In this document: one piece after another, positions 630-4,825 of the stretch
Layout of the letters: every line of letters starts with the position of its first letter
Position numbering within the stretch: the first letter of the stretch is position 1
IMG/VR virus record: IMGVR_UViG_2778261227_000008
Strand: one strand, 5' to 3'
Length of the DNA: 5,181 nt
From: a virus
Taxonomy: Duplodnaviria; Heunggongvirae; Uroviricota; Caudoviricetes
The notes under the pieces: generated by a model
Told to the model about the DNA's origin: nothing
What the model saw: only the letters and a program-made list of their open reading frames with translations
Databases searched by the model: none
Program-made: the position numbers and the translations under genes

Positions 630-1055
630 TCAATGCACAGCCACAATATTTCCTGCAGGGCCACCACGATTCATCTGGTTGAAACCAGCGATCGCCACTG
701 CGACAAAATCATCAGCGTCTCTCACCAGTCGTTCCCGCGTCTCCACTAGTTCCCGAAAATAGGCTGAGCTATGGCTGCGCATTCGGGCCACCAGCAGAGG
801 TGGCATTGCTTTTTCGATAGCTGGTAACAACGCCTGAATTTTTTTAACCGCATCAGGGGTGTCTTTCTCCACCCAGCGGAAAATTTTCTGAGTATTGCGT
901 GCCAGGGCTTCCGGATGGCTGTCGTCATACAGTTCCGGGAACGTAATTCCCAGTTCGAAATACGCTTTGGTAATCTCTGCAGCCGGTACTTTCTCGCCGT
1001 CCGGATGTGCCCAGGCATTCATCGCCATGCGGATGTGTTCATGCTTGATTTTCAT
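630..1055 (-). CDS. ydaT: YdaT-like protein, 141 aa (CII-like regulator of Rac/CP-933P-type prophages; historically annotated as a toxin)
   Basis: ORF-track protein starts MKIKHEHI and is 141 aa. It lies immediately downstream of a Cro-like gene, with ATGA start/stop overlap at 1052-1055. Size and synteny match Rac ydaS-ydaT. The name is from recollection of the family, not a search. Confidence 0.7.
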   Translation of the reverse strand: MKIKHEHIRMAMNAWAHPDGEKVPAAEITKAYFELGITFPELYDDSHPEALARNTQKIFRWVEKDTPDAVKKIQALLPAIEKAMPPLLVARMRSHSSAYFRELVETRERLVRDADDFVAVAIAGFNQMNRGGPAGNIVAVH

Positions 1056-1354
1056 GAATCAACTCCATCAGATAAGCATGCACTACAATCACCTTCAGCA
1101 TGGACTACATGTGTTTGCCCCAAACGAATGCCGCTCGCATACTCAGGCCAAATAAGCTCCCAATCATGGGGTCGTAGCTCCGCCCTACTTACCTGGCCTT
1201 CCGTCGCAGATTCGATCATAAGGGCGCGGGTTGGAGATATAGCTGCTCGTCCAGACGCCATTTGCGATAAGTAAGATGGCGATACACCAAGTCTGGCCGC
1301 GAATTTCTTAGCATCACCAACTCTCAATGATTTAATAAACTCTTTTAATGTCAT
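1052..1354 (-). CDS. ydaS: YdaS-like Cro/HTH (XRE-family) DNA-binding protein, 100 aa
   Basis: ORF-track protein contains LGVSPSYLSQMASGRAAISPTRALMIESATEGQVSRAELRP, a typical HTH recognition-helix pattern. SD-like GAGGAAGG sits just upstream of ATG at 1354. It is divergent from the repressor-like gene and coupled to ydaT. Confidence 0.7.
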   Translation of the reverse strand: MTLKEFIKSLRVGDAKKFAARLGVSPSYLSQMASGRAAISPTRALMIESATEGQVSRAELRPHDWELIWPEYASGIRLGQTHVVHAEGDCSACLSDGVDS

Positions 1355-1382: not shown

Positions 1383-1445
1383 AGTTTAGTGTTTAATAAA
1401 CCATTAAGTCAAGTATTTGCTTGTTTAGTGATTACTAAAGATAAT
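1383..1445. promoter_or_regulatory. Divergent promoter/operator region between ydaS and the repressor gene
   Basis: Minus-strand promoter candidate: -35 TTGACT (rc of 1407-1412), 18-nt spacer, -10 TAAACT (rc of 1383-1388). Plus-strand candidate: -35 TTGCTT 1417-1422, 17-nt spacer, -10 GATAAT 1440-1445. The 11-bp palindrome GTTTA-A-TAAAC at 1391-1401 lies in the minus-promoter spacer. Direct repeats GTTTAGTG(T/A)TT at 1365-1375, 1384-1394 and 1423-1433. Elements read by eye, not scored. Confidence 0.5.
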
Positions 1446-1451
1446 TACCAC

Positions 1452-1823
1452 ATGCAAAAAAAAGAAATTCGCCGTTTACGTCTCAAGGAGTGGTTTAAAG
1501 ATAAAACTCTGCCACCCAAAGAGAAGAGCTACCTATCTCAACTAATGAGTGGGAGAGCCTCGTTTGGAGAAAAGGCTGCCAGAAGAATAGAGCAAACATA
1601 CGGGATGCCGGAAGGGTATCTGGATGCGGAATACGCAGAACAACCGGAGGTTTCTCCACCACATGCAGGGTTAACGTCTAATCAACTGGAATTATTGCAG
1701 ATTTTTTCAGCCTTCCCTGAGGATGAGCAACGCCAGATAATCAGCGAGTTAAAGCAGAAAAAAGAATCAATGGAAGACCTCATAGCGAGATGGATTGCGG
1801 CGCAAAAATGCCGCCGCGCCTGA
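1452..1823 (+). CDS. paaR2: HTH transcriptional regulator of a three-component toxin-antitoxin operon, 123 aa; occupies the prophage repressor position
   Basis: ATG at 1452, in frame within track ORF 1389..1823; the GTG at 1389 has no SD. XRE-like segment EKSYLSQLMSGRASFGEKAARRIEQTYGMPEGYL. It is divergent from the Cro-like gene and followed by an antitoxin-toxin pair. Identified as paaR2 from memory of the E. coli O157:H7 paaR2-paaA2-parE2 system; paralogue number not verifiable here. Confidence 0.65.
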   Translation: MQKKEIRRLRLKEWFKDKTLPPKEKSYLSQLMSGRASFGEKAARRIEQTYGMPEGYLDAEYAEQPEVSPPHAGLTSNQLELLQIFSAFPEDEQRQIISELKQKKESMEDLIARWIAAQKCRRA

Positions 1824-1843
1824 GTTATAAAACCGGAGGAAAC

Positions 1844-2035
1844 ATGAATAGAGCCCTTTCACCAATGGTTTCTGAGTTTGAAACCATTGAACAAGAAAAC
1901 AGTTACAACGAATGGCTGCGTGCGAAAGTAGCAACGAGCCTTGCAGATCCGCGCCCAGCAATTCCTCATGACGAAGTTGAGCGCAGAATGGCAGAACGCT
2001 TTGCTAAAATGCGCAAGGAACGGAGCAAGCAGTAA
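1844..2035 (+). CDS. paaA2: Small antitoxin, 63 aa (PaaA2-like)
   Basis: ATG at 1844 with SD GGAGGA at 1835-1840, in frame within track ORF 1790..2035. Product is MNRALSPMVSEFETIEQENSYNEWLRAKVATSLADPRPAIPHDEVERRMAERFAKMRKERSKQ. Its stop is 1 nt before the toxin start. Size and position fit the antitoxin of the ParE2 system, as recalled. Confidence 0.7.
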   Translation: MNRALSPMVSEFETIEQENSYNEWLRAKVATSLADPRPAIPHDEVERRMAERFAKMRKERSKQ

Positions 2036-2036
2036 A

Positions 2037-2315
2037 ATGTTACCCGTATTATGGCTTGAAAGCGCAGATACCGACTTGGATGATATAACTGGTTATATTG
2101 CTCGTTTCGACATAGATGCGGCAGAACGCTTATGGCAGCGATTAAGGGGTTGTGTGCTGCCGTTATCCGAACACCCGTATTTATACCCACCAAGCGACAG
2201 GGTGCCTGGCTTGCGTGAGATTGTGGCCCACCCTAACTATATAATTCTATACCGCGTAACAACATCAAGCGTTGAAGTAGTAAACGTGATCCACGCAAGA
2301 CGCCAGTTTCCCTAA
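2037..2315 (+). CDS. parE2: RelE/ParE-superfamily toxin, 92 aa (ParE2-like)
   Basis: ATG at 2037, in frame within track ORF 1941..2315. C-terminal pattern YIILYRVTTSSVEVVNVIHARRQFP is typical of ParE/RelE folds. Tightly coupled to the upstream antitoxin. Confidence 0.7.
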   Translation: MLPVLWLESADTDLDDITGYIARFDIDAAERLWQRLRGCVLPLSEHPYLYPPSDRVPGLREIVAHPNYIILYRVTTSSVEVVNVIHARRQFP

Positions 2316-2386: not shown

Positions 2387-2428
2387 GTTTAGTTTTTACT
2401 TGACTTGAGTTTAATGTTTATTAAACTA
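2387..2428 (+). promoter_or_regulatory. Second operator/promoter copy (PL-like) pointing rightward toward the ydfA-like gene
   Basis: -35 TTGACT 2400-2405, 16-nt spacer, -10 TAAACT 2422-2427. Palindrome GTTTA-T-TAAAC at 2416-2426. The 22-mer gagtttaatgtttattaaacta (2407-2428) matches gagtttagtgtttaataaacca (1382-1403) at 19 of 22 positions. Half-site-like GTTTAGTTTTT at 2387-2397. Confidence 0.5.
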
Positions 2429-2603
2429 CAAATACCAACCCACCCCGCCCCACAGAATGCAGGGCAATACTTCGAGTTACCCGGCAGTGGTCAGGGGTTA
2501 AGTAGCCAGCCCGAGGCGTATGAACATGACGGCAGGGTTCAACTTTAACTATGCAGCAGGTTTTTGTTCCGCTACCCCGGCGTTAAGGGGAAATGAGGTC
2601 AAC

Positions 2604-2756
2604 ATGGATACTATCGATCTTGGCAACAGCGAATCTCTGGTATGTGGCGTGTTTCCCAACCAGGACGGTACGTTCACCGCGATGACGTATACCAAAAGCA
2701 AAACGTTTAAAACCGAAGCTGGCGCGCGTCGCTGGTTATCCAGAAATACTGACTGA
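2604..2756 (+). CDS. Small YdaF/YdfA-like prophage protein, 50 aa
   Basis: ATG at 2604 with GAGG at 2594-2597, in frame within track ORF 2520..2756. Product MDTIDLGNSESLVCGVFPNQDGTFTAMTYTKSKTFKTEAGARRWLSRNTD resembles the ~51-aa Rac YdaF / Qin YdfA proteins as I remember them. First gene after the PL-like promoter. Confidence 0.55.
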   Translation: MDTIDLGNSESLVCGVFPNQDGTFTAMTYTKSKTFKTEAGARRWLSRNTD

Positions 2757-3142
2757 TGAGATTAACGATGGAATTTAAAGATTTACCAACACCTTTCCAG
2801 GAAATGGCAGCGAATATAGTTCGTTCTCAATTGGCGACTCTTGACCTGAGTACCGTAGAAAAAGAAACCATAGATAATATATCCGGTAACGTGCGCCGTG
2901 CCTTTATCGGGTTGTACGAAGAGAAGCAGCACTCTGATAAGCATGATTCCTCTGAAAAATACTTCCTGGAATTAATGGATATCATTAACAAGGGGTTTGG
3001 TTTGTTGATGGAAAAGAAAGGGATTCGAATAGAACCCCTTAAAAACCATTTTACTGAGTGCAACATTAATTCCTGTGATTTAAAGCATCCCACTTCAGAT
3101 GGGAAAGTTGAAGCCAACTATAAAATATCAATTAATCATTAA
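2756..3142 (+). CDS. Hypothetical protein, 128 aa (124 aa if started at ATG 2768); no domain recognised; apparently AT-rich
   Basis: Track ORF 2756..3142. The ATG at 2756 overlaps the upstream stop (TGATG). Base composition looks clearly more AT-rich than flanking genes by eye (not computed). No motif I can assign. Confidence 0.5.
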   Translation: MRLTMEFKDLPTPFQEMAANIVRSQLATLDLSTVEKETIDNISGNVRRAFIGLYEEKQHSDKHDSSEKYFLELMDIINKGFGLLMEKKGIRIEPLKNHFTECNINSCDLKHPTSDGKVEANYKISINH

Positions 3143-3220: not shown

Positions 3221-3667
3221 CTAACCACAAAGAAATCGCATCAATTTAGATTTTGTGGGCAGCTTCTCTTGTTGTTCGATGGAAACGCCTATTTTGATCT
3301 GTGTTTTTAAGATCGCAATATCTTTAAGTGATGACCAAATATGATCATCCGTTTTTTCCAGAATTTTTAACTGCATTTTCAATTCAGAATCAGAATATTT
3401 TTCTGCATCATCAAAAAGCTGCAAATATTCTGCGGATTTTCTCATGGCGTTACCTGACTTTTGTCCGAATCCATAAATCGTTTGGACGGTTGCGATCACA
3501 ACAATAAAAACGCCAGAAATTTCCGGAATGAATCCGCCAATGACAGATGAACCGAGGATAATACTCACCACTGAGAGAAGTTTATCGAGACGACCAGTCG
3601 CTACAGAAAATAGTTGCTCAAGAAAATAGCCATATAAAATTCTGTCAAGAATATCATCCCGGTCCAT
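3221..3667 (-). CDS. Small two-transmembrane membrane protein, 148 aa; SieB-like (superinfection exclusion) by position, or a SLATT-like 2-TM effector
   Basis: Track ORF; ATG at 3667 with AGGTGA upstream. Two hydrophobic helices (LLSVVSIILGSSVIGGFI and ISGVFIVVIATVQTIYGF) followed by a charged helical tail. Orientation opposite to the PL-like operon and adjacent to a ydaF-like gene, as sieB is in Rac. Functional name is inference. Confidence 0.55.
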   Translation of the reverse strand: MDRDDILDRILYGYFLEQLFSVATGRLDKLLSVVSIILGSSVIGGFIPEISGVFIVVIATVQTIYGFGQKSGNAMRKSAEYLQLFDDAEKYSDSELKMQLKILEKTDDHIWSSLKDIAILKTQIKIGVSIEQQEKLPTKSKLMRFLCG

Positions 3668-3673
3668 ACATCA

Positions 3674-3820
3674 TCACCTGCTTGTTTGGTTGTTGCTGTT
3701 CCCCCTCTCCTCCGAAGGAGCTGGAGATGGTTTTGGTCGAATGTTTTTCTCTGGTATGTGATCCCAGACTGTTTTATGTGTCGAATTGCCACCACCTGCT
3801 TGTGCTCTTTGCTCTGTCAT
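3674..3820 (-). CDS. Possible small ORF, 48 aa, immediately upstream of the two-TM gene; uncertain
   Basis: Internal ATG of track ORF 3674..3937, with AAGGA 6 nt upstream. Its stop TGA is 7 nt before the two-TM gene ATG. Product MTEQRAQAGGGNSTHKTVWDHIPEKNIRPKPSPAPSEERGNSNNQTSR is hydrophilic and low-complexity. A plus-strand ORF at 3727..3882 with SD AAGGAG competes for the same DNA. Confidence 0.25.
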   Translation of the reverse strand: MTEQRAQAGGGNSTHKTVWDHIPEKNIRPKPSPAPSEERGNSNNQTSR

Positions 3821-4119
3821 ATGATTTCCTTGGATCGTTGGGGATATCCAGATTATACAGATTTCTTGTCGTTGGGGAATGACAGGAACCACCTCGCCTG
3901 ACGTGGTTAAAAGCAGGCACACAACACGAAAGCGCACGGCGAAGTCATTTCTCCCTCTGTTGCGTGTCGCCGGTATCTTCGACCGTGCGCTTCCGGTTGT
4001 GGCACTCCGCGAAATGGCGCGGCGGTAAGTATGGCGGGGTTATCCTTACCCCCACTGGTAGCACCGGGTTGTCAGGTTGACCATACGCCTGAGTGACAAC
4101 CCCGCTACAACACTCCATG

Positions 4120-4176
4120 TTGATTTGTACCTTTGGCGGCATCAGTTTCATTGCTGGCTGATGTCCCCCCTTTTTA
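4120..4176 (+). ncRNA. dicF: DicF-like small RNA with terminator-like 3' hairpin and U-tract
   Basis: Sits directly upstream of dicB as in the Qin dicB operon. Segment TTTGGCGGCATCAGTTT matches my recollection of E. coli K-12 DicF (TTTGGCGGTATCAGTTT). Stem CATCAG/CTGATG extended by G-C pairs and followed by CCCCCCTTTTT (4165-4175). 5' boundary is estimated; the 5' portion differs from K-12 as I recall it. Confidence 0.5.
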
Positions 4177-4178
4177 AA

Positions 4179-4340
4179 GTGAATTTTGTGATGCGGTGAA
4201 TGCGGCTGAGCGCACGCGGAACAGTTAAAAAGCGATTAGTTCCCCCGTATCGGGTGTTTATGGGTTTCCCTGTATCCGGCGTTAATTGTTAACTGGTTAA
4301 CGTCACCTGGAGGCACCAGGCACCGCATCACAAAATTCAT
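4179..4340 (+). other. 20-bp long-range inverted repeat bracketing the dicB leader
   Basis: GTGAATTTTGTGATGCGGTG at 4179-4198 is the reverse complement of caccgcatcacaaaattcat at 4321-4340 (19 of 20, the last pair G-U in RNA). The 3' arm ends 4 nt before the dicB SD (GAGGA 4345-4349). Confidence 0.6.
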
Positions 4341-4356
4341 TGTTGAGGACGCGATA

Positions 4357-4545
4357 ATGGAAACGTTATTACCAAACGTTAATACGTCTGAAGGTTGTTT
4401 TGAAATTGGTGTCAGAATCAGTAACCCTGTATTTACTGAAGATGCCATTAATAAGAGAAAACACGAACGGGAGTTATTAAATCAAATTTGCATTCTTTCT
4501 ATGCTGGCCCGTTTACGTCCGACTCAAAAAGGATACTGGCAATGA
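4357..4545 (+). CDS. dicB: DicB cell-division inhibitor, 62 aa
   Basis: Hand translation gives METLLPNVNTSEGCFEIGVRISNPVFTEDAINKRKHERELLNQICILSMLARLRPTQKGYWQ, recognised as DicB. SD GAGGA 7 nt upstream. Confidence 0.9.
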   Translation: METLLPNVNTSEGCFEIGVRISNPVFTEDAINKRKHERELLNQICILSMLARLRPTQKGYWQ

Positions 4546-4733
4546 ATACCACATTTGCACTTGTTCTGACGGTTTTTCTTGTTTCCGGTGAACCGGTTGA
4601 CATGGTTACTGGCGTATACGGCTCAATGAAAGAATGCATGGCTGCCGCAGCGGAACAGAAAATTCCCGGTAACTGTTATCCGGTCGATAAAGTTATTCGC
4701 ATGGATAATAACGAAGTCCCGGCAGGGCTTTAA
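4542..4733 (+). CDS. ydfD: YdfD-like prophage lysis protein, 63 aa, N-terminal hydrophobic segment
   Basis: ATG at 4542 overlaps the dicB stop (ATGA), in frame within track ORF 4488..4733. Product MNTTFALVLTVFLVSGEPVDMVTGVYGSMKECMAAAAEQKIPGNCYPVDKVIRMDNNEVPAGL. Synteny dicF-dicB-ydfD. Confidence 0.8.
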   Translation: MNTTFALVLTVFLVSGEPVDMVTGVYGSMKECMAAAAEQKIPGNCYPVDKVIRMDNNEVPAGL

Positions 4734-4825
4734 ACCAGCACCGTAATAAATATCCGGTTTCATTTTTATATGCCAGCAATGGCAGGGATTTGTTCACCCT
4801 TAAATCTGTAATGAGGTAAAACAAA

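Follow-up and report, generated by a model that had tools for sequence, protein, structure and literature searches.

A probable small RNA gene of the DicF family in a lambdoid prophage, a variant that lacks the pairing segments of K-12 DicF

DicF of Escherichia coli is a textbook prophage small RNA (sRNA) and is usually treated as one sequence. The element considered here is a DicF-like sRNA gene on a stretch of 5,181 nucleotides (nt) from a virus of the Caudoviricetes (IMG/VR record IMGVR_UViG_2778261227_000008; the whole stretch is referred to as the window). In K-12, dicF is annotated as the non-coding RNA (ncRNA) b1574 in the Qin prophage, between ydfC and dicB (L001, 4383-4435). For K-12 DicF, pairing with ftsZ and pykA has been ascribed to the 3' region and pairing with xylR to the 5' region (PMC5069750), manX is a further target (PMC9438474), and the dicF copies found in earlier surveys were more than 99% identical to K-12 (PMC5069750). 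A second K-12 prophage sRNA, KilS, lies in Rac between sieB and kilR and is annotated as ncRNA kilS, b4833 (L184, 7406-7503, minus strand); it was predicted from RNA interaction by ligation and sequencing on Hfq, verified by northern blot, found with the partner yncL and possibly has its own promoter (Bar et al. 2021, PMC8175672). DicF is not mentioned in the KilS paper (PMC8175672), and no paper in the literature searched names KilS and DicF together.

As judged by sequence comparison, the window carries a real variant of this sRNA family, a member of a rare and unnamed allele class that retains none of the three K-12 pairing modules. The reading that we consider probable is that 4120-4175 on the plus strand is a lambdoid-prophage sRNA gene of the DicF/KilS family, whose product would act through Hfq and whose pairing segments, and hence targets, would differ from those of K-12 DicF. 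The gene and its immediate surroundings comprise the following parts.

3981-4105, plus strand: conserved untranslated leader 5' of the sRNA, 88.8% identical to K-12 Qin, with inverted repeats I2-I4
4106-4119, plus strand: precursor sequence 5' of the mature RNA, within a small hairpin in the fold (4108-4122), aligning upstream of the annotated K-12 5' end
4120-4175, plus strand: predicted mature DicF-family sRNA of about 51-56 nt, from K-12 dicF alignment and Rfam match, with a putative 5' end and the terminator U-run as 3' end
4120-4134, plus strand: single-stranded 5' arm UUGAUUUGUACCUUU, 15 nt, unpaired in the predicted fold, class-specific candidate seed of subtype A
4135-4170, plus strand: terminator hairpin of 11 base pairs (bp), outer GGCGG/CC(C)CC, inner CAUCAG/CUGAUG, bulged U4164
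4146-4157, plus strand: 12-nt hairpin loop UUUCAUUGCUGG
4167, plus strand: private G-to-C substitution in the 3' stem arm, CCGCCC to CCCCCC, by comparison with 46 other copies
4171-4175, plus strand: U-run TTTTT, intrinsic terminator and presumed Hfq-binding 3' tail, identical in every collected family member
4180-4198, plus strand: 5' arm of a long-range duplex, inverted repeat I1, a perfect 19 bp with 4321-4339
4321-4339, plus strand: 3' arm of the same duplex, just 5' of dicB

In pairwise alignment with K-12 Qin, K-12 dicF falls opposite window positions of about 4120-4170, and on this alignment 4120-4175 is its positional homologue; the putative 5' end at 4120, 15 nt ahead of the GGCGG stem, was assigned on the analogy of K-12. 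A first, sequence-only reading had assigned a DicF-like sRNA to 4106-4176, an interval that covers the RNA but whose first 14 bases (4106-4119) are upstream precursor and not a homologue of the mature RNA. The designation as DicF-like is borne out by synteny, near-identical flanks, a hairpin with a U-run and a sub-threshold Rfam match, which all agree. The gene order, DUF1391 gene, long leader, sRNA and dicB, is that of Qin, so that the element occupies the position expected of DicF in a dicBF-type operon. Identity to K-12 is 88.8% in the leader and 98.3% downstream (4171-4230), whereas it drops to 59% in the RNA body (4120-4170) and to 35% in the 5' arm (4120-4134). Since flanks of 89-98% identity enclose a body of 59%, the divergence from K-12 that the first reading had described is genuine and confined to a short stretch, and the sequence is not essentially identical to canonical DicF.

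What is shared with K-12 includes the core that the same reading had described as retained, TTTGGCGG at 4132-4139 and ATCAGTTT at 4141-4148 (UUUGGCGG.AUCAGUUU in the RNA), together with CC.CCCTTTTT, the hairpin base, the U-run followed by AAAGUGAAUUUUGUGAUG, and the downstream long-range duplex. The differences extend beyond the 5' portion and stem-loop originally singled out and involve the 3' arm as well. The 5' arm of the window is 8 nt shorter than that of K-12 and unrelated to it (UUGAUUUGUACC in the window, UUUCUGGUGACG in K-12); the loop is UUUCAUUGCUGG instead of UUUUACUCCGUGA and lacks the ACUCCG anti-Shine-Dalgarno (anti-SD) sequence; ACUGCUCUGCC is missing from the 3' arm; and the inner stem is CAUCAG/CUGAUG, whereas that of K-12 is CAG/CUG and is accompanied by an asymmetric internal loop. 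A covariance scan, which the first reading had proposed, matched the Rfam DicF family (RF00039) at 4122-4170 with 30.3 bits (E = 0.001) against 76.7 bits for a K-12-type copy, the gathering score being 48 bits. In the RefSeq rows inspected (H123-H128), copies that match K-12 dicF or kilS at 100% identity are themselves without an annotated feature, and the missing ncRNA annotation in RefSeq is therefore uninformative.

The hairpin and U-run form a rho-independent terminator, with UUUUU and a single internal mismatch or bulge due to C4167, and the hairpin was also detected by a simple terminator scan (4138-4165). Its folding energy of -15.8 kcal/mol (z = -2.5) is close to that of K-12 DicF (-15.9), while the class consensus reaches -21.0. 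The terminator was thus retained as claimed in respect of the hairpin and the TTTTT at 4171-4175, but not of the stem in full, as C4167 breaks the middle pair of the GGCGG/CCGCC helix. This substitution accounts for the decrease in stability from -21.0 to -15.8 kcal/mol, which still leaves the hairpin level with K-12 DicF. Related copies have UCCGCCC or UCCGUCC in the 3' arm where the window has UCCCCCC, and a C at 4167 was found in none of the 46 other copies with the same 24-nt hairpin top (10 carry CCGTCC and one carries TGCGCC elsewhere in the arm).

The consequences for target choice were estimated by cofolding, with the binding energy taken as E(dimer) minus E(monomers) and ranked by the fraction of 400 random prophage windows of 100 nt whose binding is equally strong or stronger. 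For K-12 DicF the procedure reproduces the pairing of GGUGACGUUU with xylR, of the ACUCCG loop with the SD regions of ftsZ and pykA, of CUGCCGCC with ftsZ upstream of the SD, and of ACUGCUCUGC.GCCC with codons 11-16 of manX. The window allele contains none of the K-12 pairing segments, as the 5' GGUGACGUUU, which is the xylR seed, the loop ACUCCG, used for pykA and ftsZ, and the 3' arm ACUGCUCUGCCGCCC, used for manX, are all replaced; of the complementarity to the ftsZ ribosome-binding site, neither the ACUCCG anti-SD nor CUGCCGCC is present. The energies (kcal/mol, fraction in brackets) were -13.9 (0.022) for ftsZ, -15.4 (0.020) for xylR, -9.7 (0.117) for pykA and -15.9 (0.018) for manX with K-12 DicF, and -10.2 (0.035), -3.8 (0.61), -1.4 (0.92) and -5.5 (0.31), respectively, with the window allele starting at 4120. 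For xylR, pykA and manX this corresponds to the top 2-12% of the background with K-12 DicF and to its middle with the window allele. The prediction is thus that these three targets are no longer paired with, and the classic pairing with ftsZ by the anti-SD is gone, in line with the earlier suggestion that the target set may be altered; for ftsZ that suggestion may fail, because a different pairing is predicted there.

In this alternative pairing, the 5' end of the window RNA, UUGAUUUGU.ACC, would bind ftsZ at -21..-10 (GG.ACAAAUCGG) through seven Watson-Crick and two G-U pairs that reach two nucleotides into the SD. The predicted energy depends on the 5' end, falling to -5.5 kcal/mol if the RNA starts at 4124, and a perfect 7-mer between a 15-nt arm and a 40-nt region has a chance of about 0.02 before any correction for the several targets examined. 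The pairing is absent from the other two 5' subtypes of the window's hairpin class (fraction 0.12 for subtype B; for subtype C the site lies far inside the coding region).

Natural chimeras within the family behave in these calculations as the idea of separate modules would have it. Where the K-12 5' arm is joined to a foreign loop, xylR alone is kept (0.013; ftsZ 0.63), and chimeras with the K-12 loop and foreign 5' arms keep ftsZ (0.037-0.040) and pykA (0.050-0.055) but not xylR. Two other procedures were dropped: hybrid-only duplex energies (RNAduplex, for whole RNAs or 20-nt windows) over-extend the duplexes and gave fractions of 0.26 for ftsZ and 0.12 for xylR, and mononucleotide shuffles of the sRNA are a biased control because they destroy the hairpin, and were replaced by the random prophage windows.

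Complementarity to other parts of the prophage was also observed. Positions 4150-4159 of the loop are perfectly complementary over 10 nt to GCCAGCAAUG at 4772-4781, a site (GCCAGCAATG) that forms part of a short hairpin some 45 nt before the start codon of the exonuclease gene. It was rejected as a cis target varying in step with the allele class, as it accompanies K-12-type alleles just as well (56 of 74 loci); with a chance expectation of about 0.2-0.4 for such matches, the complementarity may be accidental. The window also has, in the leader of dicB and 116 nt beyond the terminator, the sequence AACGTCACC (4299-4307; at about 4553 in K-12 Qin, L001), which is complementary to GGUGACGUU, the 5' seed with which K-12 DicF pairs with xylR. 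This sequence recurs at the 116-nt offset in most K-12-type loci and is present in the window, whose sRNA has no such seed.

The allele class of the window is rare but recurrent. With 71-nt megablast queries against 5,426 complete E. coli genomes, the K-12 DicF type was identified in 3,975, the Rac (KilS) type in 1,431 and the window type in 84, seven of the latter at one mismatch (best 98.6%); none of the 5,426 has an exact copy of the window query. Carriers of the class include the E. coli strains NS-NP030, RM8082 and C5. The window loop occurs in 2 of 120 IMG/VR loci in a scan unbiased by loop type, and in the whole of IMG/VR 46 contigs carry its 24-nt hairpin top and fall into three 5' subtypes, the window belonging to subtype A and subtype B having the 5' arm UUGAUUGGU. 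Among species-representative genomes, the family flank was found in Escherichia and Shigella records and in two contigs of metagenome-assembled genomes (MAGs), and an exact-pattern scan of the same genomes for the window hairpin returned no match. The two MAG contigs (L177 and L181) are short, carry a KilS-type sequence and are labelled 'Proteobacteria bacterium' and 'Candidatus Nanosynbacter'; they are most likely mis-binned E. coli DNA.

For the family as a whole, IMG/VR was scanned for the conserved post-terminator sequence and, separately, for the hairpin top of the window, and RefSeq loci were added; the resulting 165 loci gave 43 distinct DicF-family alleles. As class 3' arms are one column out of register in the MAFFT alignment, the alleles were folded individually instead of counting covariation formally. 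Despite differing stems and loops, the hairpin abuts the U-run in 43 of 43, and paired changes are seen in the stem (GGCGG/CCGCC versus GGUGG/CCACC; GGCGGGUAUC/GAUACCCGCC). Several discrete loop types can be told apart, ACUCCGUG in K-12, CUUGAAGU in Rac, UUUCAUUGCUGG in the window, UUAAUUGCUGG, GUUUUCCC and a few singletons, which are combined with the 5' arms UUUCUGGUGACG, UGUGUGUAGUC, UUGAUUUGUACC, UUGAUUGGUACC, GUUGAUUACCUU and others. Unnamed classes of Escherichia and Shigella prophages share the scaffold and flanks of the window and differ in their combinations of 5' arm, loop and 3' arm; one has the loop UUAAUUGCUGG, close to that of the window, and the class with the GUUUUCCC loop has a 5' arm, GUUGAUUACCUUUUGG, in common with subtype C of the window's class. 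Since one 5' arm is found with different loops and vice versa, an exchange of modules is evident, and DicF is best described, at the level of these alleles, as a modular family.

The Rfam scores follow the same division, with 76.7 bits for the K-12 type, 58.9 for a K-12 loop with a foreign 5' arm, and 28.6-39.1 for the tested classes with other loops (34-39 for the consensus of the window's class), all of these last being sub-threshold. Family scans at curated thresholds will overlook such non-K-12 versions. In a minority of E. coli prophages, the same DicF scaffold carries quite different pairing segments, and should target choice depend on the variable segments, strains that a dicF presence/absence score cannot tell apart could differ in how their prophages affect host division and sugar metabolism upon induction.

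The K-12 sRNA KilS appears to be a sister class within this family, as it has the hairpin base, inner stem, U-run and downstream leader in common with the others; in a three-way alignment, the hairpin base and the entire leader to the start codon are common to the window, Qin and Rac. The homologous element of Rac precedes a different FtsZ-directed killer gene, kilR, and shares with the window's class the inner stem CAUCAG/CUGAUG, the bulged U, the CCGCCC-UUUUU end and the downstream leader. In both loci, too, the DUF1391 gene is separated from the sRNA by a minus-strand gene, which is sieB in Rac and a 148-amino-acid (aa) open reading frame (ORF) in the window. In contrast, the loop is UUUUUUUCUUGAAGUUCGG in KilS and UUUCAUUGCUGG in the window, the 5' arms are UGUGUGUAGUCC and UUGAUUUGUACCUUU, and the downstream genes are kilR and dicB, respectively. 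The KilS-specific 5' segment UGUGUGUAGU, the CUUGAAGU loop and a downstream kilR are all absent from the window. The annotated KilS is 98 nt long and has a start site of its own, and about 100 nt of similarity to its 5' extension are missing from the window.

As an Hfq-associated sRNA with the partner yncL, KilS provides independent evidence that a non-K-12 class is expressed and has a partner of its own. The yncL leader contains a match, ACUAUACACA, to the class-specific 5' segment of KilS (UGUGUGUAGU), which suggests that in KilS the variable segment does the pairing. Taken together, the natural chimeras and the KilS example suggest that the variable segments set target choice. If confirmed, the link between KilS and DicF would join two separately described K-12 sRNAs in one family. 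The new elements are modest, namely the rare allele class, the inclusion of KilS in the same family, and a modular pattern linking segments to targets. Faubladier and Bouche are said to have reported, in 1994, dicF-like sequences in several prophages, Rac included; in view of that report, part of these findings may be a rediscovery.

If the window RNA is indeed a DicF/KilS-family sRNA, relief of the prophage repressor would lead to transcription of the early-left operon, from the ydfA homologue through the sRNA to dicB, ydfD and the exonuclease gene, and part of the transcripts would stop at the intrinsic terminator (4135-4175). Endonucleolytic cleavage, carried out by RNase E in K-12, would then occur in the AU-rich stretch near 4120 and generate the 5' end. 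The product of 50-55 nt, with a 15-nt single-stranded 5' arm, a hairpin and a U-tail, would have the architecture of an Hfq-dependent base-pairing sRNA, and because its 5' arm, loop and 3' arm are all replaced on a kept scaffold, its targets should differ from those of K-12 DicF. Read-through transcripts may in addition be cut by RNase III in the duplex formed by 4180-4198 and 4321-4339 to give a longer species of about 72 nt. In K-12, RNase III processing of the read-through dicBF transcript gives a 72-nt DicF (PMC5069750); a 3' end 19 nt past the terminator would lie in the 5' arm of the duplex, and the putative cleavage site is placed there for this reason.

A wider proposal, offered tentatively and rather doubtful as it stands, is that DicF, KilS and the window's class form a single 'seed-swapping' prophage sRNA family, in which cassettes for the 5' arm, the loop and the 3' arm would be exchangeable on a conserved scaffold for processing and termination in the early-left operon, giving each prophage lineage a host-target specificity of its own. 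Subtype A would then have re-acquired ftsZ through its 5' end, with UUGAUUUGU pairing to ACAAAUCGG at ftsZ -18..-10 and overlapping the SD; it would thereby have converged with K-12 DicF, in which the loop and 3' arm serve this purpose.

Several observations weigh against the identification of the window element as an sRNA with altered targets. Its Rfam score stays under the gathering score, a sigma-70 scan gave no promoter-like site in 3668-4120, and the minus-strand gene at 3221-3667 stands between ydfA and the sRNA, so that the promoter feeding the sRNA is ambiguous. In the minimum-energy fold, C4167 leaves the stem 3-4 nt further from the U-run, and both termination and the amount of short RNA could be lowered as a result. 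The expression, processing, 5' end and Hfq binding attributed to the window allele are drawn by analogy with its relatives. As for targets, the cofold background is prophage DNA and not E. coli mRNA leaders, which makes the predictions crude; hybrid-only energies poorly separate the validated K-12 targets from the background; and ftsZ may remain a target through the different pairing described above, which is to be taken as a lead.

The main competing explanation, which we regard as appreciably less probable than an sRNA gene, is that the element serves the early-left operon solely as an intrinsic terminator or attenuator, similar to tL, that limits dicB expression and has no function in trans, the stem and loop being free to drift and recombine as long as a hairpin and U-run remain. 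The constants of the family are indeed the stem base, the U-run and the flanks, while the loop and 5' arm vary and every allele keeps the hairpin; furthermore, no significant pairing of the K-12 type is predicted for the window allele, and the loop complementarity to 4772-4781 does not co-vary with the allele class. A terminator, however, does not need a single-stranded 5' arm that comes in discrete recurring types, and the core UUUGG...AUCAGUUU is conserved beyond what the hairpin requires. DicF and KilS, which have the same architecture, are experimentally supported Hfq-associated sRNAs (PMC5069750; PMC8175672). The two roles are also not mutually exclusive, as K-12 DicF is itself derived from a terminator.

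It is unlikely that the window holds a decaying copy in a defective prophage, with the G-to-C change at 4167 reflecting lost constraint and the RNA unmade or unstable. The change is private among the copies with the same hairpin top, an exact match is missing from the complete genomes, and the hairpin is about 5 kcal/mol weaker than the class consensus, but it is as stable as that of K-12 DicF, the dicB, ydfD, ydfA-homologue and repressor genes are intact ORFs with full-length family matches, and a single difference could be a sequencing error. A protein-coding role of the minus strand is highly improbable: the 68-aa ORF at 3945-4151, antisense to the sRNA and its leader, has an ATG start and is called 'hypothetical protein' by the Prokaryotic Genome Annotation Pipeline in the RefSeq strains NS-NP030 and RM8082, but it is very probably a miscall, having no Pfam match and a PHROG match of only 19 residues (E = 6.6e-4), being uncalled in most genomes with the same DNA, and taking its start codon from the reverse complement of CAU in the class-specific loop, which makes it impossible in other classes although the underlying DNA is conserved.

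The window as a whole represents the immunity and early-left part of a lambdoid E. coli prophage that resembles Qin and Rac, with the following features besides those listed above.

630-1055, minus strand: YdaT-family gene
1052-1354, minus strand: YdaS/Cro-like gene
1389-1823, plus strand: repressor-like regulator
1790-2315, plus strand: PaaA2/ParE toxin-antitoxin pair
2400-2427, plus strand: weak promoter-like site at the early-left promoter position of the operon, 9/12 match to the sigma-70 consensus
about 2603-2756, plus strand: ydfA homologue (DUF1391; Pfam E = 9.4e-28), first gene of the sRNA-carrying operon
2756-3142, plus strand: 128-aa ORF
3221-3667, minus strand: 148-aa ORF (PHROG 6315, function unknown; no Pfam match)
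4357-4545, plus strand: dicB, cell-division inhibitor, operon gene downstream of the sRNA (Pfam DicB PF05358, E = 3.9e-36, full length)
4542-4733, plus strand: ydfD homologue
after the ydfD homologue: exonuclease gene, start only

The whole window was found as one stretch in no complete RefSeq E. coli genome, the best single place having 81% coverage at 93.5% identity, and it is therefore a mosaic. In a near-identical RefSeq locus with the same gene order, the counterpart of 4357-4545 is annotated as dicB. The DUF1391 gene holds the position of ydfA in Qin and of ydaF in Rac. The number of sites in the sigma-70 scan of the window is no greater than in shuffled sequences, and the site at 2400-2427 is therefore weak. 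The PaaA2/ParE pair lies between the repressor-like gene and the early-left operon, where lambdoid phages often have accessory genes, and the 148-aa ORF, on the opposite strand inside the operon, corresponds in relative position and orientation to the superinfection-exclusion gene sieB of Rac. Between this ORF and dicB there are about 450 nt with no convincing ORF.

The spacer between dicF and dicB is enclosed by the perfect 19-bp duplex and shows, at 4168-4389, a sub-threshold match to the Rfam family STnc100 (37 bits; gathering score 47), which recurs in every related locus tested, K-12 Qin included. In two further loci (L045, 4732-4920; L053, 2972-3160), the place of dicB after the DicF-like element and its STnc100-like spacer is taken by genes for isrK and C4 antisense RNA, which both score above the respective Rfam thresholds.

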